NCBI GenBank assembly: GCA_964370025.1
Contig: CAYJGJ010000004.1
Coordinates: 6,216-70,215 of the forward strand
Source of the DNA: an uncultured Oscillospiraceae bacterium
GTDB taxonomy: Bacteria > Bacillota > Clostridia > Peptostreptococcales > Anaerovoracaceae
DNA length: 64,000 nt
Direction of reading: 5' to 3'
Position numbers and translations under genes: made by a program. Below, in pieces: positions 25,280 through 42,772 of this stretch; positions within the stretch are counted from its first letter, which is position 1; each line of letters begins with the position of its first letter. The notes under the pieces were generated by a model. That model was not told the DNA's origin and searched no databases. It saw only the letters and a program-made list of their open reading frames with translations.

Positions 25280-27202
25280 ATGAGAAAATACATAGTAATA
25301 AGACTTGTCTTGTTAGTACTTGTAATTGGTGGACTAATCATATCTGTTGGTGCATATATTATGTATCAAGAGGCGCAGTCAGGATTTGAGCAAGAAGCTG
25401 TTGAGCAAATATCACAGATTGAAGATATTTTGCAAGAAAATGAAGAATCGGTAGCAGAGTTACAAGAAGATTTGAAAGATGACTTCTTAATTCGAGCTCA
25501 TGCTGCAGCTTATATTGTGCAAAATAACAAAGATGTTATATTTGATATTCAGCAATTAGATTATATAGTTTCGCTTCTTCAAGTAGACGAAATCCATTTT
25601 TTTAATCACGATGGCATAATTTACAGTGGCAATATTCCTGAATATCATGGAATATCAGTTTATTCTGGCGGACAAATTGCGTTTTTTGCACCTATGTTGA
25701 ATGATTACGATTTAGAGCTTGCACAGGATGTTACCCCAAATACAGCAGAAAAAAAAGATATGCAGTATGTAGCGGTGTGGAGTGAAGATAGACAACACAT
25801 AGTTCAGATAGGTATTGAACCAGTACGACTACTAGATGAAATGATGACTACGGATCTTTCTTTTATATTTTCTCGTCTTACACCTTCTATGAATACAATG
25901 TCATTTGCCGTCGACTGTACGAGTGGCGAAATAATTAGCAGTACAAACATGACAGTTTTCGGTGAAACACTGTCAGATATTGGAATGTCAAATTTTAATA
26001 GTTCAGATGTCGGAAAACTTCAAAATGCAGTTATCGATGGAGAACAAGGATATGTTTATTTTAAGCAACATTCAGAAGATATATATATCGGATTTTATAG
26101 AAATGAAACATCGATATATGATTCGACGATGGAAGCTCTTTCCAATATGGCACATATAGCTTTGCTTATTTCTTCTGTTATTATTGTCTTGGTATATTTC
26201 CTATTAAATCAAACAGTTCTCCGGGGTCTTTCTAAAATAGAAGACGGCATGAAGACGATTTCTGAAGGAAATTTAGAATACAAAATGGATGTTAGTGGGC
26301 TGCCTGAGTTTAAGTCTTTGAGTAGTAATATTAACTTTATGGTAAATCGTGTGCTTGAAACGTCAGGAAAGTTTTCCATTATTTTTGAATATGTTAATAT
26401 GCCTATTGCTATGTATGAATGTAATGAACAGGCGGTGGTTGTAACAGGTAAGATGTCAGAGATATTTGAAATTTCCGAAGAACGTTTTTCACAAGAACTA
26501 AAATCGCCTAGCGATTTCATGAAGTTTATTGAAGAAATAATGGCACGACGCCATCCAAGTGAAAATGATTTGTATATTTATCCAGCTGATTCTGGTGATC
26601 GATTCTTAAAAATACTGCGGCATCAAGACGGAAGCAGTGATTGGGGATTAATCATAGATTCCACAGAAGAAATAGTCGAAAAATATACCATCAAGCAAGA
26701 GCGCGATTTTGATTTTCTTACAGGTCTTTACAATAAAAGATCTTTCTTTGAACAAGTGGAGGCCCTTTCTCTAAAAGAGGACGAAGTAAAGAAAGCTATA
26801 ATAGTAGTTTATGATTTAGATAATTTGAAGTACGTCAATGACACATGGGGACACGATACAGGTGACGCATTTATTAGTGCAGCGGCTAGTGTTTTAAAAG
26901 AATGCACGTATGAACATAAGATGTGTTCTAGACTTAGCGGTGATGAATTCGCAATGGTTCTTTATGCTTCTGATGATTATCTTCAATTGGAGCAACAGCT
27001 AGAAAAAATTAAGGAAGATTTCAAAGCTTCATATATAGATACGCCAGACGGAAAAGGTCATAGAGTTAGCGCATCTATAGGATATTCTCTTTACCCTGAA
27101 CATGCAAGTGATTTCAGAACTTGCATTACCTATGCAGATAAAGCATTATATGTTGCAAAAAGTAAGGCAAAGGGGAGTATTCAAAAATACATTCCGAAGT
27201 AA
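25280..27202 (+). CDS. Membrane sensor diguanylate cyclase (extracytoplasmic domain-HAMP-PAS-like-GGDEF)
   Basis: Two TM segments flank a roughly 260-aa domain, followed by a HAMP-like segment. LTGLYNKR, NDTWGHDTGD and RLSGDEF (SGDEF variant), then a C-terminal KGS motif. Confidence 0.85.
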   Translation: MRKYIVIRLVLLVLVIGGLIISVGAYIMYQEAQSGFEQEAVEQISQIEDILQENEESVAELQEDLKDDFLIRAHAAAYIVQNNKDVIFDIQQLDYIVSLLQVDEIHFFNHDGIIYSGNIPEYHGISVYSGGQIAFFAPMLNDYDLELAQDVTPNTAEKKDMQYVAVWSEDRQHIVQIGIEPVRLLDEMMTTDLSFIFSRLTPSMNTMSFAVDCTSGEIISSTNMTVFGETLSDIGMSNFNSSDVGKLQNAVIDGEQGYVYFKQHSEDIYIGFYRNETSIYDSTMEALSNMAHIALLISSVIIVLVYFLLNQTVLRGLSKIEDGMKTISEGNLEYKMDVSGLPEFKSLSSNINFMVNRVLETSGKFSIIFEYVNMPIAMYECNEQAVVVTGKMSEIFEISEERFSQELKSPSDFMKFIEEIMARRHPSENDLYIYPADSGDRFLKILRHQDGSSDWGLIIDSTEEIVEKYTIKQERDFDFLTGLYNKRSFFEQVEALSLKEDEVKKAIIVVYDLDNLKYVNDTWGHDTGDAFISAAASVLKECTYEHKMCSRLSGDEFAMVLYASDDYLQLEQQLEKIKEDFKASYIDTPDGKGHRVSASIGYSLYPEHASDFRTCITYADKALYVAKSKAKGSIQKYIPK

Positions 27203-27518: not shown

Positions 27519-28736
27519 TTAAGATTGTTTGTATGTTGACAAAAAATCTCGTATGTGTCCAGTTGCCTCTTTGATTAAAGTAACATCAGGAAGATATACA
27601 ATTCTAAAGTGATCGGGTTCGCTGTGATGGAATCCTCCGCCACGAACTAAGAGTACTTTTTTCTCTTTGAGGAGATCGAATACAAATTTTTCATCACTTG
27701 TAATATTGAATTTTTTAATGTCAAGTTTGGGGAATATGTAAAATGCCCCTTTAGGTTTGACGGCAGATAGTCCTGGAATATCGTTCATTTCCTTATATAT
27801 TAATTCGCGTTGTTCATATACTCTTCCACCAGGAAGTAAGTCAGGATTTTTGACATCTGAATCTTTAAGCGCATACTCTACGAGCCGTTGCGCTGGAACA
27901 TTTGAACAAAGACGCATAGAAGATAACATGTTTATTCCATCAATGTATCCAGAAATTTTTTCTAACGCCCCGGAGAACATCATCCAACCTATTCTATATC
28001 CACAAACATAATGAGATTTGGAAAGTCCTCCAAATGTCACGCAAGGGAACTTATCCCCTAACGATGCTATCGGATAATGTACGTTGTCATCAAACAAAAG
28101 CCGGTCGTATATTTCATCAGAAAAAACTATAAGTTCTTTTTCTTCTGCAAGTTTAACTACTTCGAGTAGGAATTCCTTAGGGTATACCGCACCTGTTGGA
28201 TTGTTCGGATTTATTAAAATAATCCCTTTAGTTTTGTCGTTTATTTTGCTCTTGATATCATTTATATCGGGCACCCAATCGCTTTGTTCGTCACATATAT
28301 AGTGAACTGCTTTTGCACCTGTTAGTGTAACCGACGCTGTCCATAAGGGATAATTTGGTGAAGGTAGTAGCATTTCATCCCCGGGATTTAAAAGGGCTTG
28401 CATTGAAAGCTGTATTAACTCGGAAACGCCATTTCCTGTATATATATTATTAGGAGAAGCATTCGATATACCGTTTCTTGTGTAGTAATTGCAGATAGCT
28501 TCTCTTGTATCTAGGAGTCCTTTTGATTCAGAATATCCGTCAGAAGACCTTAACCCATTAATCATTTCTTCTACCAAATCGGATGGTGCATTAAGTCCAA
28601 AGGGTGCGGGATTACCTAGGTTTAGCTTGACAATTTTATCTCCAAGCTTTTCCATACGCATAGCTTCATCCAGTATTGGTCCTCTAATGTCATAAAATAC
28701 ATTATCTAGGCTAGTTGATTTTTTGAATTCTCTCAT
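27519..28736 (-). CDS. Class I/II PLP-dependent aminotransferase (AlaA/AlaC-like)
   Basis: N-terminal YDIRGPILDEA...KLNLGNPAPFGL typical of alanine aminotransferase-type enzymes. NPNNPTG, and SKS..VCGYRIGW carrying the PLP lysine. Confidence 0.8.
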   Translation of the reverse strand: MREFKKSTSLDNVFYDIRGPILDEAMRMEKLGDKIVKLNLGNPAPFGLNAPSDLVEEMINGLRSSDGYSESKGLLDTREAICNYYTRNGISNASPNNIYTGNGVSELIQLSMQALLNPGDEMLLPSPNYPLWTASVTLTGAKAVHYICDEQSDWVPDINDIKSKINDKTKGIILINPNNPTGAVYPKEFLLEVVKLAEEKELIVFSDEIYDRLLFDDNVHYPIASLGDKFPCVTFGGLSKSHYVCGYRIGWMMFSGALEKISGYIDGINMLSSMRLCSNVPAQRLVEYALKDSDVKNPDLLPGGRVYEQRELIYKEMNDIPGLSAVKPKGAFYIFPKLDIKKFNITSDEKFVFDLLKEKKVLLVRGGGFHHSEPDHFRIVYLPDVTLIKEATGHIRDFLSTYKQS

Positions 28737-28894: not shown

Positions 28895-29464
28895 TTAGCT
28901 CTCATAGGTTTTTAGAATTCTTTCTGCAATTTCTAGCCGAGAAACTCGAGCATTCATTGACTTTTTTTCTATATACTTATGTGCTTCTTTTTCGTTCATA
29001 CTTAGATGAGAAATTAAGAGACATTTTGCTCTATCTATGGTTTTAATGTGTTCTATTTTCTGAGCTAATTTTACATTTTGCTTTTGTATTTTATTCAGTC
29101 TCGCAAAGGTAGCTTTTGCAAGTTTTAATGTTGTCCATATTACTTCCTTGTTAAGTGGTTTAGAAATGGTAAGAACTCCCAAGTCTTCAACCAAAGATGA
29201 CATATATTCATAAACATCACTTTTTACTACATAAATCACTTGGCAAGCATCGTAAGAAATGAGCTCTTTAACAAGGCTTTCTCCTGAATCTGTATATACA
29301 GGGCTATTGATTATGTATACGTCAAAGTTGTATTCGCTCGCCATTCTTCTTGCCTCTCCACAAGTTTTCGCTGTTTCAATTTTGCTGCAAGATATCTTTC
29401 GCAATAGTTTCATAATGCTTTCTAGATTTTGAGTCGAATATGATACTATTAAAGCACTTTCCAA
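28895..29464 (-). CDS. ANTAR-domain RNA-binding antiterminator with receiver-like N-terminal domain
   Basis: C-terminal IEHIKTIDRAKCLLISHLSMNEKEAHKYIEKKSMNARVSRLEIAERIL is the ANTAR three-helix signature. TTG start 8 nt after AAAGGTG. Lies immediately downstream of glnA. Confidence 0.8.
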   Translation of the reverse strand: MESALIVSYSTQNLESIMKLLRKISCSKIETAKTCGEARRMASEYNFDVYIINSPVYTDSGESLVKELISYDACQVIYVVKSDVYEYMSSLVEDLGVLTISKPLNKEVIWTTLKLAKATFARLNKIQKQNVKLAQKIEHIKTIDRAKCLLISHLSMNEKEAHKYIEKKSMNARVSRLEIAERILKTYES

Positions 29465-29540
29465 GAGATTCGCACCTTTCTACTATAGATTTTAGAAGTA
29501 ATTTTTTGAATTAATATAATTTCATTTTGGAGATGTTACT

Positions 29541-30809
29541 TTAGATTTTTGGACTTTCAAATATTTCTTTTTCTTTAATTTTAATATATTTCTCTATAAA
29601 CTCACTTCCTAGATGTTCACTTACAAAACTACTTTTTCGTGCAAGTTCAATAGCTTCATTTAAATTTTTAGGTAGTGAATTTAATTTTTTTTCAATAATT
29701 TCATCTGAAGATAATGATTTAATATTGATAGGATTTTCGAGCTCCAAATTGTTTTGAATTCCATGTAATCCCGCATGTAAAATTAGTGAAAAAGCAATGT
29801 ATGGGTTTAATGTTGGATCTGGAGACCTCAGTTCCATTCGTTCTCTTCCGTTAGTAGCAATTGGAATTCTTACAATTCCTGAGCGGTCTTTATCTGACCA
29901 TGTAATATATGTTGGGGCCTCAAAAGAGCCGAAGCGTTCATACGAGTTGTTGATTGGGTTCAAAAAAAGAGTGATTTCCGCAATTTTATCAATAATGCCA
30001 GCTATGAACATCTTTGCATATTTATAATTTTCACTAGTAGCATCAGAGAAAACATTTTGTCCATCTTTGTGAAGAGAAATATTTAGATGTAACCCGCTCC
30101 CACTTTTATCTTCAAGCGGCTTTGGTAGAAAGGATGCATACAATCCATTTCTAGAGGCAAAAGAATTGACAATGGTTTTAAATGTTAAAAAGTTATCGGC
30201 GGCAGAAAGTGGGTCACTAAATTTAAAATCTATTTCGTTTTGTCCGGGACCACGCTCATGGTATGAATTTTCAGGGTTTAGCCCCATTTCTTCAAGGCAT
30301 AAGCATATTTCTCGTCTAATGTTTTCTCCCTTATCGAGAGGTGATATGTCGAGGTATGTGCCATTATCTAATGGTTTATCTGTAGGCTCATCAATTTCAT
30401 CATTTTTAAAGAGATAAAATTCACATTTGGTTCCGATTTTACAGCTATATCCGAAACTACTCAAGTGTTTTATAGCTTTTTTAAGCATACTTCTGCCATC
30501 TCCTGCAAAAGAAGTGTTATCTGGATTCTTTATATCGCAGTAGAAGCGAAGCACAGCGTTTGTCTGTGGTCGCCATGGAAGCAAACTTAGACTTTCTATG
30601 TCTGGAAAAAGTAATAGATCAGAGTTGCTCATTTCTGAAAAGACGTTTATTGCGGATGAATCAATGGATCTTCCATCGGAAAAAGCATATTCCAATTCGG
30701 TTGCCATAACCGATATATTTTTAGAAATCCCAAATGGATCACAAAATCCAAGACGAATAAATTTGACATCATTTTCTTCGATGAATTCCGAAATTTCTTT
30801 ATTAATCAC
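29541..30809 (-). CDS. glnA: Glutamine synthetase, type I-like (short, 422 aa)
   Basis: N-terminal beta-grasp VKFIRLGFCDPFGISKN. NEIDFKF, GSGLHLNISL, MELRSPDPTLNPYIAFSLILHAGLHGI. GTG start 9 nt after GGAGGTG. Confidence 0.85.
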   Translation of the reverse strand: MINKEISEFIEENDVKFIRLGFCDPFGISKNISVMATELEYAFSDGRSIDSSAINVFSEMSNSDLLLFPDIESLSLLPWRPQTNAVLRFYCDIKNPDNTSFAGDGRSMLKKAIKHLSSFGYSCKIGTKCEFYLFKNDEIDEPTDKPLDNGTYLDISPLDKGENIRREICLCLEEMGLNPENSYHERGPGQNEIDFKFSDPLSAADNFLTFKTIVNSFASRNGLYASFLPKPLEDKSGSGLHLNISLHKDGQNVFSDATSENYKYAKMFIAGIIDKIAEITLFLNPINNSYERFGSFEAPTYITWSDKDRSGIVRIPIATNGRERMELRSPDPTLNPYIAFSLILHAGLHGIQNNLELENPINIKSLSSDEIIEKKLNSLPKNLNEAIELARKSSFVSEHLGSEFIEKYIKIKEKEIFESPKI

Positions 30810-30830
30810 TTTAAAAGCACCTCCAATACT

Positions 30831-30908
30831 AAAAAAGCGTTCATCAAACTAATAACATTCCCGCGAAGTCGGGACTGCTATTGAAGCAATTGATGAACGC
30901 CATTGTCC
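30831..30908 (-). promoter_or_regulatory. glnA 5' leader: hexaloop hairpin competing with an intrinsic terminator (ANTAR-type attenuator candidate)
   Basis: On the minus strand, GGAC-AATGGC-GTTC (30908-30895) overlaps the 5' arm of the stem GCGTTCATCAA/TTGATGAACGC (30900-30890 with 30847-30837). Apical CCCG-ACTTCG-CGGG hairpin, then U6 (30836-30831), then the RBS. Confidence 0.6.
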
Positions 30909-30914
30909 ATATTA

Positions 30915-30944
30915 TTTATACCAAAAAAATATGTGCTTTGTCAA
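30915..30944 (-). promoter_or_regulatory. Candidate sigma-A promoter for glnA (TTGACA-18 nt-TATAAA)
   Basis: On the minus strand, TTGACA at 30944-30939 and TATAAA at 30920-30915. The leader hairpin starts about 7 nt downstream. Confidence 0.5.
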
Positions 30945-30994
30945 TCGCTAATTAATTATTTTTGAAAAATATGATAAATTATTTTAAAAAAGTA

Positions 30995-31023
30995 TTGACA
31001 ATCAAAAAATAATATGACATATT
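30995..31023 (+). promoter_or_regulatory. Candidate promoter for the asnA array (TTGACA-17 nt-CATATT)
   Basis: Perfect -35 TTGACA at 30995-31000 and weak -10 CATATT at 31018-31023. Divergent to the glnA promoter. Confidence 0.4.
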
Positions 31024-31034
31024 TGCATGATAAA

Positions 31035-31079
31035 CAACAAAGGCGTTGTGGACCTGACGGTTCGCGACGCCTTTTTTTT
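31035..31079 (+). promoter_or_regulatory. asnA 5' leader: hexaloop hairpin competing with an intrinsic terminator (ANTAR-type attenuator candidate)
   Basis: CAAC-AAAGGC-GTTG (31035-31048) overlaps the 5' arm of the 13-bp stem GGCGTTGTGGACC-TGAC-GGTTCGCGACGCC (31042-31071). T8 follows at 31072-31079, 28 nt before the asnA ATG. Confidence 0.6.
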
Positions 31080-31107
31080 ATTAATTCATAAGATAGGAGT
31101 GAAATTT

Positions 31108-32112
31108 ATGAGTAAAATGATGAAAATATGTCGAAATGAAAAAACATTATCTACATATCAAACACAAATGGCAATAGGCAGAGTAAAGAGAGTATTCGAG
31201 GATAATTTAAGCCAAAATTTAAATTTAAAAAGAGTTTCAGCTCCGCTGTTTTTAACTGCATCCACGGGTCTAAACGATGATCTTAATGGGATAGAACGTC
31301 CAGTTTCATTCGATATTGCAGAAACAAAAACAGATGCAGTTGTTGTACACTCACTCGCAAAATGGAAACGATATGCTCTTTTTAAATATAATTTTCCTGT
31401 TGGAGAAGGTTTGTATACAGATATGAATGCCATACGACGGGATGAAGAGATGGATAATTTGCATTCTATTTATGTTGACCAATGGGATTGGGAAAAGGTA
31501 ATAGATGAAAAAACTAGAAATAATGAAACTCTAAAAGAGACAGTTAATCAGATTGTATCTGCAATTTGTGATACGCATGACATTATCAACAAGGAATACG
31601 GTCTACCTCCAAGGATTTCAAGAGAAGTGAGTTTCATAACTACTTATGAACTTGAGGAAATGTATCCGGAACTTTCTCCTAAAGAGCGTGAAAATGAATA
31701 TTTAAAGGAGCATAGGACAGCTTTCATTATGCAAATAGGTGATTTTTTAAAGTCGGGACAGAAACATGATGGAAGAGCGCCGGATTACGATGATTGGGCT
31801 CTGAATGGGGATATTCTATTCTGGAGTGATATTTTAGATCGTGCATTTGAAGTTTCATCTATGGGTATTAGAGTGAGTCCTAAATCTTTAGACGAACAAT
31901 TAACTAAAGCAGGCGCAGACGAGCGAAGAACATTAGATTTTCACAAAATGCTGCTCGAAGGGAAATTACCCCTTACTATAGGTGGAGGTATTGGACAGTC
32001 TAGACTTTGTATGTTGCTTCTGGGAAAGGCTCACATAGGAGAAGTTCAAGTTTCTATATGGGATCAAGAAACGATAGATAAGTGTGCGGAATTAGGTCTA
32101 GAATTGTTATAA
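31108..32112 (+). CDS. asnA: Aspartate--ammonia ligase (asparagine synthetase A)
   Basis: Collinear with E. coli AsnA: VVHSLAKWKR, HSIYVDQWDWEKV, RAPDYDDW, LNGDILFW, ELSSMGIRV, IGGGIGQSRLCMLLL. ATG 31108 follows TAGGAG. The ORF-track start 31027 would translate the leader terminator. Confidence 0.9.
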   Translation: MSKMMKICRNEKTLSTYQTQMAIGRVKRVFEDNLSQNLNLKRVSAPLFLTASTGLNDDLNGIERPVSFDIAETKTDAVVVHSLAKWKRYALFKYNFPVGEGLYTDMNAIRRDEEMDNLHSIYVDQWDWEKVIDEKTRNNETLKETVNQIVSAICDTHDIINKEYGLPPRISREVSFITTYELEEMYPELSPKERENEYLKEHRTAFIMQIGDFLKSGQKHDGRAPDYDDWALNGDILFWSDILDRAFEVSSMGIRVSPKSLDEQLTKAGADERRTLDFHKMLLEGKLPLTIGGGIGQSRLCMLLLGKAHIGEVQVSIWDQETIDKCAELGLELL

Positions 32113-32124
32113 GGAGGAGAGAAA

Positions 32125-34212
32125 ATGAGCTATGTTCCAAAATTGTTCGCAAGCAAAGTATTCAATGATGAGGTGATGCGTGACAGATTGCCTAAAGATA
32201 TATATAAAGCTCTGAAGGAAACGATCGAATTAGGGTTGTATTTGCAGCTCGATGTCGCAAATGTAGTTGCTACAGCTATGAAGGATTGGGCCGTGGAAAA
32301 AGGCGTAACGCACTTTACTCACTGGTTCCAACCTATGACGGGGATTACAGCGGAAAAGCATGACAGTTTTATTTCCCCTATTGCGGGTGGAAATATAATA
32401 ATGGAATTTTCCGGAAAAGAGCTTGTAAGGGGGGAGCCGGATGCGTCTTCTTTTCCAAGTGGTGGGATAAGAAGTACCTTTGAAGCTAGAGGATATACCG
32501 TATGGGATACAACCTCATATGCGTTTATAAAAGATGATGTGTTGTGTATACCGACAGCTTTTTGTTCGTATTCTGGCGAAGCACTCGACAAAAAAACACC
32601 TCTCTTACGCTCAATGGAGGCACTGAGCAAACAATCATTGCGAATTTTAAAATTGTTTGATAACACGACGGCAAAACGCGTGAATTCTACGGTTGGACCG
32701 GAACAAGAGTATTTTTTAGTAGATAAGAGTGTTTTTTTGAAACGTCCAGATCTTATGTACTGTGGAAGAACTTTGTTCGGGGCAAAACCTCCCAAAGGAC
32801 AAGAGCTGGAAGATCATTATTTCGGTGCAATCAAGCCTCGTGTTTCGGCTTTTATGAAAGAGTTAGATGAAAAATTATGGGAACTTGGAATCATGGCGAA
32901 GACGAAACATAACGAAGTTGCGCCTGCACAACACGAGTTAGCACCAATTTTCGAAACAACTAATATTGCTACAGATCATAATCAACTCACTATGGAATTA
33001 ATGAAAAGCATAGCTGATAAACATGATCTCGCATGCTTGCTTCATGAAAAGCCATTCGCGGGGGTAAATGGTTCTGGAAAACACAATAATTGGTCCTTAT
33101 CTACAGATACAGGTATAAACTTATTAGAACCAGGTGAAACTCCTTATGATAATGCACAATTTGTATTGTTTTTGGTAGCTGTTATTAAAGCGGTTGATAA
33201 ATATCAAGATCTTTTACGAGTATCTGTTGCAAACTCAGGAAATGATCATCGATTAGGTGGGAATGAGGCTCCACCGGCAATTGTTTCAATGTTTTTGGGA
33301 GACGAGTTAACACAAATCTTGCAGTCACTTGAAAACAATGAAGAGTACAAAGGTGTAAATAAGTCTAAAATGAAATTAGGTGCAGTAGTACTTCCTAATT
33401 TTCCCAAAGACACTACAGATAGAAATCGCACATCTCCTTTTGCTTTCACAGGCAATAAATTTGAGTTTCGCATGCTAGGATCCACTTTTTCAATTTCTGG
33501 TCCAAACATCGTATTAAACACGATAGTTGCGGAAGTTTTGAGTGAATTTGCCGATATATTAGAGAGTGCGGATGATTTCAAAGTATCTCTAGGGGAACTT
33601 GTTAGAAATACAATAAAGAATCACAAGAGAATTATCTTTAATGGAAACAATTATTCTGAGGAATGGGTTGACGAAGCTAATAAAAGGGGACTATTAAACT
33701 TAAAAACAACTGTCGATGCACTTCCGGAATTTGTGAATAAAAAAAATATTGAACTTTTTGTTAAGCATAATGTATTTACAGCAAATGAAGTTCATTCTCG
33801 ATACGAAATAATGATGGAAAATTACCATAAAACAGTTCATATAGAGGCCCTGACTTTCATAGAAATTGTAAAAAAACATTTTACACAGTCGACGATGAGT
33901 TTCCAAAAGGAATTGCTTGACGTTGCTATCAATAAAAAGATGTTCGAGATTGATTCAAGTTTAGAGGAGAGAATAATACAAAAATGCACATATCTAATTA
34001 AGGAAACATATAGAAATGTCGAAACATTAGAGAATAGATTAATAGCAACAAAAGAGATAAACGATACTCTAGAACTTGGAATTTATTATAGGGACAGCAT
34101 TTACTCATTAATGATTGAAACAAGAGTAATGATCGATGAATTGGAAACAATTATTCCTTCTGAATACCAAACGTTACCAAGTTATAGTGAGATACTTTAT
34201 AGCGCAAACTAA
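32125..34212 (+). CDS. glnN: Glutamine synthetase type III
   Basis: 695 aa with the GS-III N-terminal domain ([23 protein letters not shown]). Catalytic region [31 protein letters not shown]. Confidence 0.9.
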
Positions 34213-34276
34213 AAATATATTGTATTATATGTATATGATTTATTAAAAGATAGTGCTTTTTAAAGGAGTATTGAGA

Positions 34277-35686
34277 ATGAACGACAAGTTAAATGAAGAA
34301 TGCGCAATTTTTTCCGTTAGTGTAGATGAAAAAGAAGCTGTAGGTATTACTTACAATGCATTACTTGCTTTACAGCACCGAGGTCAAGAGGGCGCAGGAA
34401 TAGCTGCGATAGATGGTAACAAAATAATTTGTCATAAAAACGTGGGGCTAGTCTCGGAAGTATTTTCTGCGGATATGCTTTCGGGTATGCCCAAAAGTTA
34501 CGTTGCTGTTGGGCATAATCGTTATTCCACAACAGGCACGAATGTTAAAGAAAATGTAGGTCCTTTTGTTACAGAATTCCTTACAGGGCGTATTGCAACA
34601 GCTCATAATGGTAATATCATTAATGCCAAAGAAATTAAGGAAGAATTAATCAATCATGGACTTAATTTTCATGCCACAAGTGATAGCGAAGTCATTTCTT
34701 CTTTAATTGGATATCACATCATGAAGTGTGGAGATGCTTTTGAAGGGATTTCTGAGGCAACAAAGAAGCTAAAAGGTGCATTTTCACTAATAGTTTTAAA
34801 TAGTAAGAATGTAATTACAGCAGTACGTGATGCTAACGGATATAGACCACTTTGCATTGGTAAAAATGAGCATGGAATGGCGGTCGCCTCTGAAAGCTGC
34901 GGGCTTGAAGCTTGCGGTTTTCAGTTCGTTAGAGATGTGAAACCAGGTGAAATTGTTGTAATCGAAAAAGGCAAAATTATTCATGAGGAAATTGTGTTGA
35001 CACAAAGGAGTGAGCATTGCGGTCTATGTATTTTCGAATACGTGTATTTTGCTCGTCCAGATTCAACTATCGATAATCTTAATGTATATGAAGCAAGGGT
35101 AAACATGGGGAAAATTCTTGCGGAAGAATACCCTGTTAATGCGGATATCGTATGTGGTGTTCCCGATAGCGGCTTAGAGGCTGCTATCGGATATAGTGAG
35201 CATAGTGGGTTGGAATTAAAGCAGGGATTTGTCAAGAATAGATATATTGGCAGAAGTTTTATATACCCTACGCAAAGCCAGCGAGAAAATGCTGTAAGGC
35301 TTAAGCTTAATCCACTGGTAGCAAATCTCAAAGGAAAACGTGTAGTACTCGTCGATGATTCAATTGTACGTGGAACAACTAGCGCAAAGATAATTAAGGC
35401 ATTAAAAATGGCAGGAGCCAAAGAAGTCCACATGAGAATTTCTTCGCCTCCTTTTCTCTACACTTGTCACTTCGGTACCGACATTGATAGCGAAGAAAAT
35501 CTAATTGCCAACAAAATGAGTTTAGATGAAATAAGAAAAAAAATAGATGCTGATAGTTTGGGATATATAAGTGTAAAAGGACTTAAAACAGCATGCAATA
35601 AATCAGGAATGAAATTCTGTACAAATTGTTTTACAGGTGATGGAATGGAATCTCAAATATCTAAGTTTGACTTGGAAGCAAAATAA
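34277..35686 (+). CDS. purF: Amidophosphoribosyltransferase
   Basis: Ntn nucleophile context NEECAIFSV, LQHRGQEGAGIA, PRTase loop VVLVDDSIVRGTTS, C-terminal Cys ligands. AAAGGAG lies before ATG 34277. Confidence 0.92.
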   Translation: MNDKLNEECAIFSVSVDEKEAVGITYNALLALQHRGQEGAGIAAIDGNKIICHKNVGLVSEVFSADMLSGMPKSYVAVGHNRYSTTGTNVKENVGPFVTEFLTGRIATAHNGNIINAKEIKEELINHGLNFHATSDSEVISSLIGYHIMKCGDAFEGISEATKKLKGAFSLIVLNSKNVITAVRDANGYRPLCIGKNEHGMAVASESCGLEACGFQFVRDVKPGEIVVIEKGKIIHEEIVLTQRSEHCGLCIFEYVYFARPDSTIDNLNVYEARVNMGKILAEEYPVNADIVCGVPDSGLEAAIGYSEHSGLELKQGFVKNRYIGRSFIYPTQSQRENAVRLKLNPLVANLKGKRVVLVDDSIVRGTTSAKIIKALKMAGAKEVHMRISSPPFLYTCHFGTDIDSEENLIANKMSLDEIRKKIDADSLGYISVKGLKTACNKSGMKFCTNCFTGDGMESQISKFDLEAK

Positions 35687-35731
35687 ATATAACTGGCAAT
35701 AATTCATACTTAAGTATAAAGGAGTAATAGT

Positions 35732-37333
35732 ATGAAAAAATATATTTTCGTAACAGGAGGTGTTATCTCTGGGCTGGGGAAGGGAATCACTGCAGCTTCA
35801 CTAGGCAGATTGCTAAAGCAAAGGGGATTACGAGTAACAGCGCAAAAACTTGATCCATATATCAATATAGATCCTGGGACAATGAACCCACTCCAACATG
35901 GTGAGGTTTTTGTGACTGATGATGGTGCCGAAACAGATCTTGACTTGGGACATTACGAAAGATTTATCGACGAAAACTTGACAAAACTCTCTAATTTAAC
36001 ATCTGGTAGGGTATATTGGAACGTATTAAACCGTGAGCGCGAAGGGCATTATCTCGGACAGACAGTCCAAGTAATTCCACATATTACTGGAGAAATCAAG
36101 GATTTTATTTACGCTGGAGCTCGCAACAGCGACTGCGACATACTTATATCAGAAATTGGTGGAACTACAGGAGATATAGAAAGTGGTCCGTTTATAGAAG
36201 CTATACGTCAAATTTCACTTGAGGTAGGGAGCGAAAACTGTATTTTTATCCATGTTACTCTAGTTCCATATCTTAAAGGATCCAAAGAACACAAATCTAA
36301 GCCGACACAGCATTCAGTTAAGGAATTGCGGTCGATGGGAATATCGCCGAATATTATCGTAGCAAGGGCGGATGAACACTTAAGCGAGGATATCCTTAAG
36401 AAAATTTCACTATTTTGCAATGTAAAAGAAGATTGCGTCATAGAAAACACAACTCTAAATGGTTTATATGAAGCACCTATAATGTTGCATGAAAACGGGT
36501 TAGATGAAGTAGTTTGCCGCGAACTAGGACTTAAATTGCCCGAGGCTGACTTGATAGAATGGCGCGAAATGACAAAAAAAATAAATAATAGAAATAGTGA
36601 AAAGAAAATAGGCATAGTTGGGAAATATGTAGATCTTCACGATGCCTATCTGTCTATTATAGAAAGCCTTAATCATGCCGGATACGAGACGGGAGTAAAT
36701 GTTAATATTAAGTGGATCGATAGTGAAACTGTCAATGAAGATAGCGAAAATGAGCTATTCAGTGACTTAGATGGAATGATAATTCCAGGCGGTTTTGGCG
36801 ATAGAGGTATTGAGGGAAAAGTTACTGCTTGCAAATATGCGAGAGAAAATAATCTTCCATTTCTCGGAATTTGTTTAGGAATGCAAATTGCCGCGATTGA
36901 GTTTGCGAGGAATATTTGTGGCATTAAAGATGCAAATTCAGAAGAATTCGATTCGAATTCAAAACATAAAGTCATTGATTATATTCCTGAACAATTGAAA
37001 ATAACACAAAAAGGGGGAACGATGCGATTGGGGGCATATCCTTGTTTCGTAAAAAAAGGTAGCTTGTTAAATAATTTATATAATAGTGATAAAATTACCG
37101 AAAGACACCGTCACCGATTTGAATTTAATAATGAGTACAGAGAAATGATGTTAGAAAACGGTCTTGTTTTTTCTGGCGTATCCCCTGATGGAACACTAGT
37201 AGAAGCAATAGAAATTCCAGAGAATAAATTCTTTGTAGGAGTCCAATTTCATCCTGAATTTAAAAGTCGGCCTAACAAGCCGCATCCATTGTTTGTAGGG
37301 TTACTAAACTCAACGATAAATCAAGAAAGGTAG
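35732..37333 (+). CDS. pyrG: CTP synthase
   Basis: [32 protein letters not shown], GATase GICLGMQ and HPEF. Confidence 0.95.
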
Positions 37334-37341
37334 CGTATAAT

Positions 37342-38055
37342 ATGGAAAAAAGAGAGATAATGTACGAGGGAAAAGCTAAAAAGGTTTTTTCTACAGATGA
37401 ATCTGAATATTGCATTGTATCGTATAAAGACGATGCTACAGCATTTAATGGCGAAAAAAAGGGGACAATTGTAGGGAAAGGCGAAGTAAATAATAGGATG
37501 TCAAATTTTATGTTTGCGAAGCTCGAAAAAAAGGGAATAAAAACACATTTTGTGAAGGAGCTTGATGCAAGAAATACCGTTGTTAAAAAAGTCGATATTA
37601 TTCCTTTGGAGGTAATCGTAAGGAATATAGCGGCAGGAAGTCTAGCTACTAGGCTTGGTATTCCAGAAGGTACAATTATGAAGGAAACGGTTTTAGAGTT
37701 TTGCTATAAAAATGACGAATTGGGGGACCCTATGGTCAACGAGTATCATATTTTAGCTTCGGAGTTCGCAACAAAAGAAGAAATTGATATTATCTCTGAT
37801 ATGAGCATGAAAGCAAATGACATAATGCTTAAATACTTTAAGACTGTCAATATAGATTTAATAGATTTTAAACTCGAATTTGGGAAGACGAGCAAAGGAG
37901 ATGTGATTTTAGCCGATGAAATATCCCCAGATACATGTAGATTTTGGGATAGTGATACAGGAGAAAAACTTGATAAGGATAGATTTAGACGTGATATGGG
38001 TGGAGTTGAGGAAGCATATGCCGAAATGATGAAAAGACTTGGAATCGATAAGTAA
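37342..38055 (+). CDS. purC: Phosphoribosylaminoimidazole-succinocarboxamide (SAICAR) synthase
   Basis: [35 protein letters not shown]. Length 237 aa. Confidence 0.93.
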
Positions 38056-38065
38056 GGAGTATAAT

Positions 38066-39499
38066 ATGCAAAGAGACACGTATGAATCGCCTTTATGCTC
38101 GAGATATGCGGAGAAAGAAATGAAGTACTTGTTTTCTCCGGACATGAAATTCAAAACTTGGCGAAAACTATGGATTGCACTTGCAGAAGCTGAAAAAGAG
38201 CTTGGGTTGAATATTACAGATGAGCAAATTAGAGAACTTATGATCAATGCAGAGAATATAAATTATGAGATCGCAGAGAAACAGGAGAAAATCGTTCGCC
38301 ACGACGTAATGAGTCATGTCTATGCTTATGGACAACAGTGTCCTAATGCGATGCCAATAATACATCTTGGTGCCACGTCGTGTTATGTAGGTGATAATAC
38401 GGATATTATTGTAATGACTGAAGCAATGAAAATCGTAAAGCGAAAGATAATTACTTTAATTGAAGCATTGTCAGATTTCGCAATGAAATATAAGGACATG
38501 CCAACGCTTGGATTTACACATTTTCAAGCAGCGCAGCCTACTACTGTAGGAAAAAGGGCCGCCTTGTGGATTGCCGATCTAGTAAGTGATCTTGAGGATA
38601 TCGATTATTTATTATCGGGAATTAAGCTTTTGGGGTCAAAAGGTACAACAGGCACGCAAGCAAGTTTTCTGGAACTTTTTGAAGGCGACCATGATAAAGT
38701 AAAATTGCTCGATAAAAAGATTGCCGAGAAAATGGGATACAGCGATTGTTATTCTGTAAGTGGTCAAACGTATTCAAGAAAAATTGATTATAGAATTCTT
38801 TCTACTTTAAGCAGTATTGCTCAAAGTGCAACAAAGTTCTCAAACGATATCCGGCTATTAGCACACCTAAAGGAGATTGAAGAACCTTTCGAAAAAGATC
38901 AAATCGGCTCGTCTGCAATGGCATATAAAAGAAATCCTATGAGAAGTGAGCGAATAGCCTCACTCGCAAGATATATTATTATTGATGCACTAAACCCAGC
39001 GATAACATCCGCCACACAGTGGTTTGAAAGAACTCTTGACGATTCTGCAAACAAGAGAATCAGTATTCCAGAGGCGTTTTTGGCTACTGATGCCATTTTA
39101 AATTTATACATAAATGTAGCTGATGGATTAGTTGTTTATCCGAAAGTTATAACCCAAAGACTTATGAATGAACTTCCATTCATGGCTACTGAAAATATTA
39201 TGATGAATGTAGTTAAAAAAGGCGGGGATAGACAAGAGCTTCATGAGAGAATAAGAATACATTCTCTAGCTGCGGCAAAAAAAATTAAAGAAGAGGGTGC
39301 CGAAAATGATCTATTAGAGAGAATTGCAGCAGATCCATTGTTTGCAGTGACGAAGGAAGACCTTAACGATATTCTAAACCCATCTAAATATGTAGGTAGA
39401 GCTCCGGAACAAACAGAAGAATTTATTAATGAAGTAGTAAATTCGATTTTGGAAACTCACAAGGAAGAATTCAAAGAAAAAATCGAAATTTATATTTGA
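38066..39499 (+). CDS. purB: Adenylosuccinate lyase
   Basis: YESPLCSRYA start typical of PurB. GSSAMAYKRNPMRSE fumarate-lyase signature. AAGGAG lies before ATG 38066. Confidence 0.93.
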   Translation: MQRDTYESPLCSRYAEKEMKYLFSPDMKFKTWRKLWIALAEAEKELGLNITDEQIRELMINAENINYEIAEKQEKIVRHDVMSHVYAYGQQCPNAMPIIHLGATSCYVGDNTDIIVMTEAMKIVKRKIITLIEALSDFAMKYKDMPTLGFTHFQAAQPTTVGKRAALWIADLVSDLEDIDYLLSGIKLLGSKGTTGTQASFLELFEGDHDKVKLLDKKIAEKMGYSDCYSVSGQTYSRKIDYRILSTLSSIAQSATKFSNDIRLLAHLKEIEEPFEKDQIGSSAMAYKRNPMRSERIASLARYIIIDALNPAITSATQWFERTLDDSANKRISIPEAFLATDAILNLYINVADGLVVYPKVITQRLMNELPFMATENIMMNVVKKGGDRQELHERIRIHSLAAAKKIKEEGAENDLLERIAADPLFAVTKEDLNDILNPSKYVGRAPEQTEEFINEVVNSILETHKEEFKEKIEIYI

Positions 39500-39644
39500 T
39501 AAAGTAATAAATTCACTTTGGATTGTCACTGATAAGAGTCTATAGTAAAACGAAAGTAATATTCAATAAAACTCTATATCAAGTTTGAACAATCCTCAGG
39601 GAGAACTCGAAGAAAACTACACAAAAGAGCGAAAGGGAAATATA

Positions 39645-40934
39645 ATGGTAAAAGCAATAGTGGGCGCATGTTGGGGTGACGAGGGCAAAGGGAAAATAAC
39701 AGATGTTTTCGCCGAGAGTTCCGACATTGTTGTGAGATTTCAAGGTGGCAGCAATGCGGGACATACAATCATAAACAATTATGGTAAATTTGCACTTCAT
39801 CAACTTCCTTCAGGAGTATTCAGAGAAAATACGATTAACATAATTGGAAATGGTGTCGCACTTTCTGTGGAAAATTTTGTAGAGGAAATAGAGGAACTAA
39901 AGTCAAGGGGTGTGCCAAAGCCTAAAATTATAATTTCGGATAGATGCCAAATCGTTATGCCGTATCACAAGGAACTTGATAGTATGGAAGAAGCGAGGCT
40001 GTCAACGAAATCTTTTGGGTCGACAAAATCGGGAATAGCACCGTTTTACTCTGATAAATATGCAAAAATTGGCTTCCAAGTAAGCGAACTTTTTGATGCA
40101 AAAGAATACTTGCTCGAAAAAATTGAGGCAGTTTGTGAAATAAAAAATTTACTGTACACTAAATTGTATAACGCTACCTCACTTGATCCATCAGAAATAT
40201 ACGATACACTTATGAAGTATAAAGAACAGATAACTCCGTATGTAGCAGATACTTTCACTATTTTGAGAGATTCAGTTAAAAATGATAAAACAATATTACT
40301 TGAAGGACAACTTGGCTCATTAAAGGATCCAGATTTAGGAGTTTATCCCATGGTTACATCATCTTCTCCAATAGCAGGTTTTGGAGCTGTAGGCGCAGGA
40401 GGAATACCACCTTATGCGATTAAGGAAATTATTTCGGTTGTAAAGGCATATTCAAGTTCAGTAGGTGCAGGGGAATTCGTCAGTGAAATCTTTGGCACCG
40501 AAGCAGATGAACTTCGAAAAAATGGAGGAGACGGAGGAGAATATGGCGCAACAACGGGAAGACCTAGAAGAATGGGCTGGCTTGATTTAGTAGCTGCTAG
40601 ATACGGATCCCAGCTTCAGGGTGCGACATCTGTAGCGTTTACGGTTATAGATGCATTGGGATATTTAGATGAAATTCCTGTATGCGTTGCCTATGAGCTA
40701 GCTGGTAAAAGAATTGATCATTTCCCAACTACGACTGAACTAAAAAAGTGCACCCCAATATTAGAAGTTTTGCCTGGATGGAAGTGCGACATAACTGGAA
40801 TTACATCGTATGAGGAACTTCCGCGAAATGCAAAAAAATATATTGAATTCGCGGAAAGACATTTGGGGATTCCGATCTCATTGATTTCGAATGGTCCCAA
40901 AAGAGAACATATTATATATAGAAAGATAAATTAA
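39645..40934 (+). CDS. purA: Adenylosuccinate synthetase
   Basis: VGACWGDEGKGKITD P-loop, GGSNAGHT, GTTGRPRR. Start ATG 39645 was chosen by homology of the N-terminus. Confidence 0.93.
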   Translation: MVKAIVGACWGDEGKGKITDVFAESSDIVVRFQGGSNAGHTIINNYGKFALHQLPSGVFRENTINIIGNGVALSVENFVEEIEELKSRGVPKPKIIISDRCQIVMPYHKELDSMEEARLSTKSFGSTKSGIAPFYSDKYAKIGFQVSELFDAKEYLLEKIEAVCEIKNLLYTKLYNATSLDPSEIYDTLMKYKEQITPYVADTFTILRDSVKNDKTILLEGQLGSLKDPDLGVYPMVTSSSPIAGFGAVGAGGIPPYAIKEIISVVKAYSSSVGAGEFVSEIFGTEADELRKNGGDGGEYGATTGRPRRMGWLDLVAARYGSQLQGATSVAFTVIDALGYLDEIPVCVAYELAGKRIDHFPTTTELKKCTPILEVLPGWKCDITGITSYEELPRNAKKYIEFAERHLGIPISLISNGPKREHIIYRKIN

Positions 40935-40948
40935 TTAGAGGTAATTAC

Positions 40949-42772
40949 ATGTGTGGAATAATTGGATACATAGGATATGAGCAGGCTACTCCATTTTTGT
41001 TAAATGGGTTAAAAAAACTTGAATATAGAGGTTATGATTCTGCAGGTGTTGCTGTTTGGAATGGGAAAGGAATCGAGATAGCAAAATCAAAAGGAAGACT
41101 TAATAATCTAGTCGATTTAATCGATGGTGGGAAAAAAATACAAGGTAGTGTGGGGATTGGTCATACGCGATGGGCGACGCACGGGGCTCCATCAGATTTG
41201 AATTCTCATCCACACCCCAGTTCGGGTGGAAAATTTGCGGTTGTTCACAACGGCATAATTGAAAATTATCTAGTGGTAAAAAACAAACTTACAAGCAAAG
41301 GGGTGAATTTCGCATCGGAAACGGACACAGAAGTAATCGCACAAATGCTGGAATACTATTATGATGGTGATGTCATGTCTACAATCAACAAAGTTGTGTC
41401 GAAAGTAGAGGGGAGTTACGCTCTTGCAATTATTTGCAAAGATACCCCAGATATACTTTATGCAGTAAAAAAAGATAATCCATTAATAGTTGGATTAGGC
41501 ACAAGCGAAAACTACATCGCATCGGATATTCCAGCTATTTTGGCAAAAACAAGGGATATATACAGACTTTCTGACGGTGAAGTTGCAATACTTACTACTG
41601 ATAATGTTTCCGTGTACAATAGCGACAATGAAAAAGTTGAAAAAGAAGTAGAAAAAATCACGTGGGATATAGAATCAGCCGAAAAAGGTGGTTATGAGCA
41701 TTTCATGATGAAAGAAATTATGGAGCAGCCTGATGCAATTAACAAAACTATACTTCCACGAATTAAAGATGGCAATATTATACTAGAGGAGCTAACACTA
41801 TCTAAGGAATATTTAGAAAATATATCTAAGATGTTCATAGTCGGATGTGGTACAGCGTACAACGTAGGCGTTGCTGCAAAATATATGTTTGAAGAACTGC
41901 TTAGAATATCTGTAGAAGTTGAAACAGCTTCTGAATTCAGATACCGAAACCCCGTAGTTGATGATAAAACTTTAGTGATAATTATAAGCCAATCTGGAGA
42001 AACCGCAGATTCTCTAGCCGCGTTGAGGCACGCAAAAAGCCAAGGTGCCAAAACAATTGGAGTTGTAAATGTCATGGGGTCTACTATCGCAAATGAAAGC
42101 GACGACGTTATATATACATGGGCAGGAATTGAAATTTCTGTAGCTTCCACTAAGGCATATAGTACGCAGCTAGCAGTAATGTATTTGATAGGAATATATA
42201 TGTCTGACAAACTCGGAAAGCTTGAAAAAAAGACAAAAGAAAAGTATATCTCTGAATTGCTCTCCATTCCAGAAAAAATAAAGAAGCTTCTCGACAATAA
42301 GGTGGAAATACAAAAAATTGCAGGGCATCATTTTAATGCAAACGATATGTATTTTATTGGACGCAATGTAGACTATGCTACGTCGCTAGAAGGTTGTTTA
42401 AAGCTTAAAGAGATTTCGTATATCCACTCGGAAGCCTATGTCGCAGGTGAGCTTAAGCATGGTCCAATCTCATTAATTGAAGATGGTACGATAGTAATTT
42501 CGATTGCTGCGTATAGGAGGTTGTTTGATAAGACGATTTCGAACATTAGGGAGGTAAAAGCAAGAGGTGCTGTGTGTTGGACTATAACTACGGATGGACA
42601 AGAGGTGCCAGAAGATATCGAATATGTTTCGCATATGCCAGAAATTACAGATTTCATGTTGCCTTCGCTTACAATTATAGAATTGCAGTTGTTTTCATAC
42701 TATGTGGCAGCGATGCGCGGTTGTGACATTGATAAGCCGCGTAACCTTGCGAAATCAGTAACTGTAGAGTAG
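40949..42772 (+). CDS. glmS: Glutamine--fructose-6-phosphate aminotransferase
   Basis: MCGIIGYIG Ntn start, two SIS domains (SQSGETADS), C-terminal KPRNLAKSVTVE. Confidence 0.95.
   Translation: MCGIIGYIGYEQATPFLLNGLKKLEYRGYDSAGVAVWNGKGIEIAKSKGRLNNLVDLIDGGKKIQGSVGIGHTRWATHGAPSDLNSHPHPSSGGKFAVVHNGIIENYLVVKNKLTSKGVNFASETDTEVIAQMLEYYYDGDVMSTINKVVSKVEGSYALAIICKDTPDILYAVKKDNPLIVGLGTSENYIASDIPAILAKTRDIYRLSDGEVAILTTDNVSVYNSDNEKVEKEVEKITWDIESAEKGGYEHFMMKEIMEQPDAINKTILPRIKDGNIILEELTLSKEYLENISKMFIVGCGTAYNVGVAAKYMFEELLRISVEVETASEFRYRNPVVDDKTLVIIISQSGETADSLAALRHAKSQGAKTIGVVNVMGSTIANESDDVIYTWAGIEISVASTKAYSTQLAVMYLIGIYMSDKLGKLEKKTKEKYISELLSIPEKIKKLLDNKVEIQKIAGHHFNANDMYFIGRNVDYATSLEGCLKLKEISYIHSEAYVAGELKHGPISLIEDGTIVISIAAYRRLFDKTISNIREVKARGAVCWTITTDGQEVPEDIEYVSHMPEITDFMLPSLTIIELQLFSYYVAAMRGCDIDKPRNLAKSVTVE

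Follow-up and report, generated by a model that had tools for sequence, protein, structure and literature searches.

Single-hexaloop hairpins overlapping intrinsic terminators in glnA and asnA leaders of Clostridia as candidate targets of a NitR-type ANTAR regulator

How does RNA polymerase reach the nitrogen assimilation genes of a bacterium when a terminator-like structure stands between promoter and gene on both sides of a divergent intergenic region? This question is raised by a stretch of 64,000 nt, in the following called the window, from an uncultured Oscillospiraceae bacterium (assembly GCA_964370025.1, contig CAYJGJ010000004.1, positions 6,216 to 70,215 of the forward strand; GTDB lineage Bacteria; Bacillota; Clostridia; Peptostreptococcales; Anaerovoracaceae). 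A spacer of about 300 bp between two divergent genes carries two promoter-leader units. On the minus strand, a predicted promoter at 30915-30944, composed of the −35 box TTGACA (30944-30939), an 18-nt spacer and the TGn-extended −10 box TATAAA (30920-30915), is followed by the leader of glnA. Ribosome-binding site and gene occupy 29541-30827, with the site GGAGGUG at 30827-30821 and the start codon GTG at 30809; the gene itself (29541-30809, minus strand) encodes a type I glutamine synthetase (GS) of 422 amino acids with the Pfam domains Gln-synt_N and Gln-synt_C. On the plus strand, a predicted promoter at 30995-31023 (−35 box TTGACA, 17-nt spacer, TG-extended −10 box CATATT, 10 of 12 consensus matches) precedes the leader of asnA (31108-32112, Pfam AsnA). 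All transcription starts referred to here are predicted from promoter-like sequence.

In both leaders, a G+C-rich stem-loop with a U-tract directly behind it, that is, a predicted intrinsic terminator, separates promoter and gene on the transcribed strand. The terminator of the glnA leader (30831-30901, minus strand) consists of a basal stem of 12 bp (GGCGUUCAUCAA/UUGAUGAACGCU, 30901-30890 paired with 30847-30836), internal helices, the apical hairpin CCCG-ACUUCG-CGGG and six U residues at 30836-30831. That of the asnA leader (31039-31079, plus strand) has the core GGCGUUGUGGACC-UGAC-GGUUCGCGACGCC in a stem from 31039 to 31074, for which a scan yielded 16 pairs, 13 of them in the G/C-rich core, and ends with eight U residues. 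Both structures had been proposed in a first-pass annotation made from the letters of the window, and coordinates and pairing of the first as well as stem and T-run of the second hold. The minimum free energy (MFE) was −35.5 kcal/mol for the glnA leader (z = −4.3), with none of 200 shuffled sequences as stable, and −30.1 kcal/mol for the asnA leader (z = −5.7 compared to shuffled controls).

In each leader, a small hairpin, H1, competes with the terminator. It has the sequence GGAC-AAUGGC-GUUC in the glnA leader (30895-30908, minus strand), extendable to AUGGAC/GUUCAU at 30910-30893, and CAAC-AAAGGC-GUUG in the asnA leader (31035-31048, plus strand), with 5 bp if A31034-U31049 is counted. Both hairpins were present as the first-pass annotation had described them, each with a 4-bp stem and a 6-nt loop, and their common string ACAAWGGCGTT occurs twice in the 64 kb, both times as an exact match and with no further match when one mismatch was allowed. 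The distance between −10 box and H1 is 6 nt in the glnA leader and 11 nt in the asnA leader. The base of the terminator 5′ arm is formed by loop positions 4 to 6 and the 3′ half of H1, which renders H1 and terminator mutually exclusive in both leaders. A comparison with constrained folds, which had been suggested as a check, gave −32.9 (glnA) and −26.0 kcal/mol (asnA) for the terminator folds but −20.3 and −9.7 kcal/mol with H1 enforced, a cost of 12.6 and 16.3 kcal/mol, respectively. With H1 enforced, the upper terminator helix persisted but was detached from the U-tract. H1 alone was weak, with −1.1 to −1.3 kcal/mol or about −4.2 kcal/mol when extended; nevertheless, it was the MFE structure of the nascent RNA, extended to 5 to 6 bp, until the 3′ arm of the terminator emerged. 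Judged by these calculated energies and by the order of folding, the combination of a weak H1 with a strong terminator has the signature of a protein-dependent antiterminator with termination by default.

The absence of H1 from related genomes had been named beforehand as an outcome speaking against the proposal. To survey the relatives, 34 homologues of the regulator encoded downstream of glnA were aligned and the alignment was used to retrieve 79 genome loci, chiefly from metagenome-assembled genomes of Oscillospiraceae and other Clostridia and from a few isolates. H1, defined by a closing C-G pair, the loop A-A-N-G-R-Y and the overlap with a terminator, was conserved at at least 65 leaders. 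Cultivable relatives that have such leaders include Christensenella sp. MSJ-20, Clostridium cuniculi, Sedimentibacter saalensis and Defluviitalea phaphyphila (loci L012, L031, L044 and L050). In a first scan of 123,823 windows with an A..G.. hexamer, four flanking pairs were formed in 2.3% of all windows compared to 11.9% of the 708 terminator-linked ones, in which a downstream arm with a T-run behind it pairs with the 3′ half. A second scan of the 79 loci plus the window selected for loop and closing pair only (C-AANGNN-G) and left the three outer pairs free; these were formed in 67 of the 76 terminator-linked sites vs. 155 of the 2283 others (Fisher p = 5e-63). This enrichment indicates that H1 is present beyond chance.

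The alignment A2 comprises 65 H1 sites, including the glnA site of the window. The closing C-G pair and the loop positions A1, A2 and G4 were invariant; purines occupied position 5 and mostly pyrimidines position 6. The stems were variable, with GAAC/GTTC and CAGC/GCTG in 23 sites each, CAAC/GTTG and GGAC/GTTC in four each, ACAC/GTGT in three, and others, and three of the four selected pairs showed changes on both sides. A fifth pair, which was outside of the selection, was formed in 55 of 64 cases (86%), as U-A in 29 and A-U in 23. The leaders could be assigned to three classes: class A in front of glnA or glutamate synthase (GOGAT) operons with 49 to 142 nt (median 64.5), measured from H1 start to 3′ arm end, the compact class B in front of asnA or the gene for GSIII with 33 to 44 nt (median 37), and class C in front of amt-PII genes with 42 to 54 nt. 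The layout of the asnA promoter recurred in 30 class B leaders. In the alignment A4 of 30 compact leaders, among them the asnA leader of the window, H1 was paired to 98% and the terminator to 97.8%, with both-sided changes in 9 of the 12 terminator pairs and many G-U pairs. Columns 16 to 20 belong to both structures; column 17 covaried with both of its partners, resulting in a three-way covariation of columns 8, 17 and 45. Since H1 and terminator both covary, as had been asked of the orthologous leaders, the alignments indicate that both mutually exclusive structures are under selection. The presence of G-U pairs in H1 and their frequency in the terminator, moreover, reveal a strand-specific structure. 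In the closest relatives, L080 and L081, with regulators 71% and 67% identical to that of the window and the same gene order, both leaders are kept with compensatory changes, including loop position 5 and its terminator partner.

Conservation of the terminator arms inside a leader class extends from pairing to the sequence itself, even between very distant genomes in A2 and A4. These arms are GGCGTTCATCA...TGATGArCGCC and GGCGCTGTGGAC...GTCCGCrGCGCC, at 30887-30913 (minus strand) and 31030-31077 (plus strand) of the window. Common descent or additional protein contacts 3′ of the hairpin could be the reason.

Which protein may hold H1? The loops AAUGGC and AAAGGC are hexaloops with A1 and G4 on a stem of at least 3 bp, here 4 to 5 bp, and substrates of ANTAR proteins are defined by tandem hairpins with just these hexaloops (Ramesh 2012, PMC3369931). 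The two positions, named in the first-pass annotation, are confirmed there and by Walshe 2022 (PMC8934654). A NitR-type regulator with an ANTAR domain is indeed encoded immediately downstream of glnA, as had been noted (28895-29464, minus strand; 189 amino acids). Its ANTAR domain (PF03861) scored 54 bits at a cut-off of 27.3, and 556 homologues with E ≤ 1e-5 were found, nearly all of them with 189 amino acids. The N-terminal domain scored as Response_reg with 23.8 bits, below the cut-off of 30.2. In an alignment to Rv1626, EutV and AmiR, Asn53 was matched to the Asp in the VIMDVKMP motif of Rv1626, taken here as the phospho-acceptor Asp, and the acidic pair at the end of beta-1 was replaced by S-x-S instead of D-D, so that a phosphorylatable receiver is not recognizable. 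Asn53 and S-x-S together indicate a pseudo-receiver, as in AmiR. The residues N53, K147, E158, H162 and M170 were invariant among the 34 aligned homologues. The RNA contacts of EutV are K149, E160, Y164 and M172 (Walshe 2022, PMC8934654); they align to K147, E158, H162 and M170 of the regulator, all four invariant, and AmiR likewise possesses a His residue at the position of Tyr164.

Taken together, it is probable that both divergent units are controlled by nitrogen-responsive ANTAR antitermination, a protein-dependent transcription attenuation. In view of loop chemistry, gene context and the contact residues that it conserves, the neighboring ANTAR protein is the best candidate for holding H1. 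The corresponding conclusion of the first-pass annotation, one antiterminator for both units, is supported wherever the sequence is able to probe it, by covariation, gene context and regulator contact residues. Transcription would start a few nucleotides before H1, and no other structure could form earlier in the nascent RNA. Without the regulator, the more stable terminator would displace H1 and the polymerase would stop after about 80 nt in the glnA leader and about 50 nt in the asnA leader. An active dimer of the NitR-type regulator would clamp the hexaloop of H1, leaving only the upper terminator helix at a distance of 7 to 13 unpaired nucleotides from the U-tract and allowing read-through. 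Read-through into glnA-nitR should create a self-reinforcing circuit, and that on the plus strand would express asnA-glnN and probably also the glutamine- or aspartate-consuming pur, pyr and glmS genes. Nitrogen limitation, the reported signal for NitR, is also the most likely one here. Since the receiver contains Asn in place of the phospho-acceptor Asp, this signal probably arrives through a partner protein or a ligand, as in AmiR/AmiC and NasT/NasS, and not by phosphorylation; at a guess, the partner may be a protein such as GS or PII. No evident partner gene adjoins the regulator gene.

The gene context in the relatives can now be combined with the location of H1. In 71 of the 79 loci, glnA was located directly upstream of the ANTAR gene, and divergent asnA and/or GSIII genes were within reach in about 28 loci. 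Some sites precede genes for GS I and the regulator, others those of a split glutamate synthase (GATase_2, Glu_synthase, ferredoxin, oxidoreductase, GXGXG), behind which come glnA and the regulator gene; such a split GOGAT-glnA-regulator cluster is described for C. thermocellum in a passage of PMC4676874. Further downstream genes encoded AsnA, GSIII, Amt-PII fusions, AsnB/PurF-type amidotransferases, CarAB, PurC, PurB and PyrG. A metagenome scan that used only the 18-nt class B motif as query gave at least 120 matching stretches, 80 loci of which were analyzed; among these listed matches, the T-run was correctly placed in 69, the first downstream gene was that for GSIII in 29, AsnA in 12, Amt in seven and a GOGAT part in one, and the remaining loci were mostly contig ends or dubious open reading frames. 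The H1 element is tied to nitrogen genes throughout, heading their predicted transcription units in dozens of genomes, but not always located beside a regulator gene.

The Amt-PII fusion genes (about 560 amino acids, Ammonium_transp plus P-II) possess leaders of their own with a third stem variant, [AG]CAC-AAnGrs-GTGT, and a compact terminator. These sites, all on the minus strand, are L003:962-975, L017:799-812, L020:2225-2238, L021:3002-3015 and L029:2169-2182.

The position of the promoters has a consequence for the structure of the target. Upstream of 52 of 67 sites, the sequence agreed with the sigma-70 consensus in at least 10 of 12 positions, and in 51 of the 58 sites that scored at least 9 of 12, the −10 box ended 6 to 13 nt before the hairpin. 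With the promoter directly in front of it, H1 should be at about position +1 to +6 of the predicted RNA, which would leave no room for an upstream hairpin P1. Tandem hairpins P1 and P2 with a short linker were not found here: hairpins of at least 3 bp with a second A..G.. hexaloop occurred 11 times upstream of H1 compared to 7.0 expected, mostly as the −35 box TTGACA read as a loop, and six times inside the terminator compared to 6.6 expected. The first-pass annotation had cautioned that there is only one hexaloop per leader, which is right and holds across the whole family. This single 5′-terminal hexaloop is the undescribed part, while ANTAR control of nitrogen genes itself is already known; no description of single-hexaloop leaders was found in the papers covered that mention both ANTAR and hexaloops, but the primary NitR paper (Stutz 2007) is not among them and may contain one.

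Evaluation of the proposed antitermination needs to consider several observations that weigh against it. The canonical ANTAR substrate consists of two hairpins and the second one is absent here. In the eut system, antitermination needs both hairpins and a linker of 5 to 12 nt (Ramesh 2012; Walshe 2022), and even though one hexaloop is the minimal motif bound by an ANTAR dimer, antitermination is still held to need two (Walshe 2022, PMC8934654). In the compact leaders, the terminator is complete as soon as about 15 to 20 nt have been transcribed after H1 has emerged, a short time for a protein to bind if no recruitment hairpin assists. The transcription starts, on which the 5′-terminal position of H1 depends, are predicted ones. 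A strict H1 site was not present in 18 of the 52 long NitR loci. Finally, among the listed motif-only matches, 45 loci include 2 kb or more on the divergent side, and no more than 8 of these have an ANTAR gene within the retrieved DNA. In the other cases, the regulator gene may have a different location; nevertheless, this rare colocalization means that the link between H1 and the regulator rests on the motif chemistry and on loci that had been selected by NitR.

This last point, together with the dual-hairpin nature of canonical substrates, would also agree with a real hairpin-terminator switch in which H1 is held by a factor other than the neighboring ANTAR protein, such as a moonlighting GS, a PII-type or another RNA-binding protein, a small RNA or a metabolite. 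Such a factor is unlikely, however. The loop carries the ANTAR signature A1/G4 with closing pairs like those of eut, and a glnA-ANTAR gene pair follows the element in many genomes. A hairpin of 14 to 16 nt is too small for a metabolite aptamer, and there was no Rfam match: the whole window gave none in Rfam 15 at gathering thresholds, and permissive thresholds at 30750-31150 returned only matches at chance level (E ≥ 1.3).

Alternatively, the leaders may contain a canonical dual-hairpin substrate after all, if transcription starts further upstream, with P1 hidden in apparent promoter DNA, or if a degenerate P2 is located inside the terminator. This explanation could appeal to the matches of the dual-hairpin model of Ramesh 2012 before glnA-ANTAR, asparagine synthase and amt genes of Clostridia. 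It could also appeal to two loci labelled as Spirochaete, L045 (58-71 and 166-179, plus strand) and L057 (244-257 and 350-363, plus strand), in which about 100 nt separate two hexaloop hairpins, GAAC/GGAC-AATGTC and GGAC-AAAGGC, the second without a sigma-70-like promoter; this pair might represent a dual arrangement with a long linker or an intermediate stage of evolution. On the other hand, second hexaloop hairpins were not enriched at either place, a near-consensus promoter ended 6 to 13 nt before H1 at most sites, and the compact leaders offer just 33 to 44 nt from H1 start to terminator end, which makes a hidden second hairpin quite improbable.

A third possibility is that the leaders are unregulated, being constitutive attenuators or mRNA-stabilizing 5′ stem-loops, with the shared 11-mer as a remnant of duplicated leaders; the sequence conservation of the terminator arms within each class would fit such a common descent. 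However, essential assimilation genes that are separated from a strong promoter by a strong terminator need an override, and covariation across leader classes and phyla maintains the alternative hairpin, leaving this explanation with very little probability. Its subvariant, a leader peptide, could use an open reading frame of 10 codons that starts at 30910 on the minus strand (AUG GAC AAU ...), but was rejected because class B leaders are without a start codon and the covarying stem changes do not preserve amino acids. That the inverted repeat serves as a DNA operator, bound at +1 by a dimeric repressor or activator and overlapping the terminator incidentally, can be dismissed as hardly credible: although N4-N6-N4 repeats at a transcription start are typical operator positions and the window copies flank divergent promoters, the half-sites covary (GAAC, CAGC, ACAC, AAGC and others) while the asymmetric loop A-A-N-G-R-Y is invariant, G-U pairs make the structure strand-specific, the element in every case faces the downstream gene and has bases in common with a terminator arm, and A4 columns 8, 17 and 45 covary in three ways.

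ANTAR antitermination at H1, being the preferred explanation, has implications for the remainder of the window. Behind the asnA leader, eight genes are arranged head to tail on the plus strand with gaps of 9 to 85 nt (31108-42772): asnA, glnN (GSIII), purF, pyrG, purC, purB, purA and glmS, as assigned by Pfam. All eight enzymes use up glutamine-amide or aspartate nitrogen, and no terminator-like site was seen on the plus strand between 32000 and 44000. The genes from asnA to glmS may form one nitrogen-gated operon of 11.7 kb. A covariance model, R1, found the glnA H1 with 26.5 bits (E = 3.7e-4) and the asnA H1 with 30.5 bits (E = 3.6e-5), scores that are no independent test since both sites belonged to the training sequences, and its scan returned no third H1 site in the window.

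Some features of the vicinity are listed in addition. Midway between the divergent −35 boxes, at 30957-30971, is a perfect 15-nt palindrome, TATTTTTGAAAAATA, with a weak likeness to a CodY box (10 of 15 positions); it was dropped as a CodY-like site because it is not kept in the closest relatives L080 and L081. In the spacer between glnA and the regulator gene, a promoter-like site (29491-29520, plus strand; TTTAGA, 18-nt spacer, TATAAT) points antisense into glnA, reminiscent of the glnA antisense RNA of C. saccharobutylicum that is reported in a passage of PMC6316151. The regulator gene is flanked by a gene for a membrane-bound GGDEF sensor (diguanylate cyclase; 25280-27202, plus strand) and one for a class I/II aminotransferase (27519-28736, minus strand), and this gene order is also found in L081. 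Binding of cyclic di-GMP to the ANTAR protein NasT is reported in a passage of PMC10783516.

Compared to known systems, the window regulator and its targets resemble EutV and the eut leaders of Enterococcus faecalis in the A1/G4 hexaloop, the closing A-U and C-G pairs, which are known to matter in eutP (Ramesh 2012, Walshe 2022), and the bases shared with the terminator 5′ arm. Both proteins are composed of receiver, coiled coil and ANTAR domain and keep the contacts Lys, Glu, aromatic residue or His, and Met. In contrast, eut has P1 and P2 separated by 5 to 12 nt and the window leaders a single hairpin at the RNA 5′ end, EutV is activated by phosphorylation of Asp54 where the window regulator has Asn, and loop position 2 (A) is also invariant in the window family. 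AmiR/AmiC of Pseudomonas aeruginosa and NasT/NasS likewise involve ANTAR proteins with a nonphosphorylated receiver-like domain, in their case partner-controlled, but the targets are amidase or nitrate genes instead of nitrogen assimilation genes. The same principle, stabilization by a dimeric protein of one weak hairpin that overlaps the terminator 5′ arm near the transcription start, is used by BglG, SacY and LicT at the ribonucleic antiterminator (RAT). These proteins possess the unrelated fold of the co-antiterminator (CAT) domain, RAT is about 29 nt long with internal loops, and control is by the phosphotransferase system (PTS).

The closest precedent is NitR, formerly GlnR, which is encoded after glnA in C. 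saccharobutylicum and is cited, in passages of PMC6316151 and PMC4676874, as an antiterminator inducing GS and GOGAT genes upon nitrogen limitation. These passages match the arrangement of glnA and an ANTAR gene in solventogenic clostridia that the first-pass annotation had mentioned. As in the window, the ANTAR gene of strain NCP262 directly follows glnA in what these passages give as a glnA-nitR/gltAB cluster, and both regulators probably represent the same orthologous system. Different from C. saccharobutylicum NitR, the predicted regulon of the window system is extended by asnA, GSIII, amt-PII and pur/pyr genes, and 65 leaders were used to define the RNA element. Nitrogen regulons had also been predicted by Ramesh 2012 (PMC3369931), whose Table S2 lists model matches before glutamine synthetase-ANTAR, asparagine synthase, ammonium transporter and glutamate synthase genes of Clostridia/Peptococcaceae. 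Each of these nitrogen-gene matches overlaps a terminator; they were obtained with a dual-hairpin covariance model at a score threshold of 10 bits and a length of 45 to 60 nt, whereas the family described here shows no second hairpin above chance.

The window system is a member of the established ANTAR control of nitrogen metabolism, and its difference lies in the RNA. ANTAR regulators are widespread, the grammar of their RNA targets rests on few dual-hairpin examples, and at least 65 single-hexaloop sites that overlap terminators do not fit the two-hairpin expectation. A natural family with one hairpin is a direct test of the two-hairpin model. Target searches would change, since dual-hairpin models miss or misalign sites with one hairpin, and a searchable RNA element becomes available to predict the nitrogen regulon of Clostridia from gut, rumen, termites and digesters, which are without nitrogen regulators of the Bacillus or enteric type. 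The question is also raised how a nonphosphorylatable receiver domain is controlled. Chances are about even that a single 5′-terminal hexaloop suffices for ANTAR antitermination in vivo and that the Asn53 NitR family is the master nitrogen switch of many Clostridia, receiving its signal via a partner such as GS or PII. If true, this would contradict the need for a recruitment hairpin P1 while the polymerase is moving. The switch would cover GS, GSIII, GOGAT, Amt-PII, AsnA/AsnB, CarAB and the amidotransferases of purine and pyrimidine synthesis and would correspond in function to TnrA/GlnR or NtrC.

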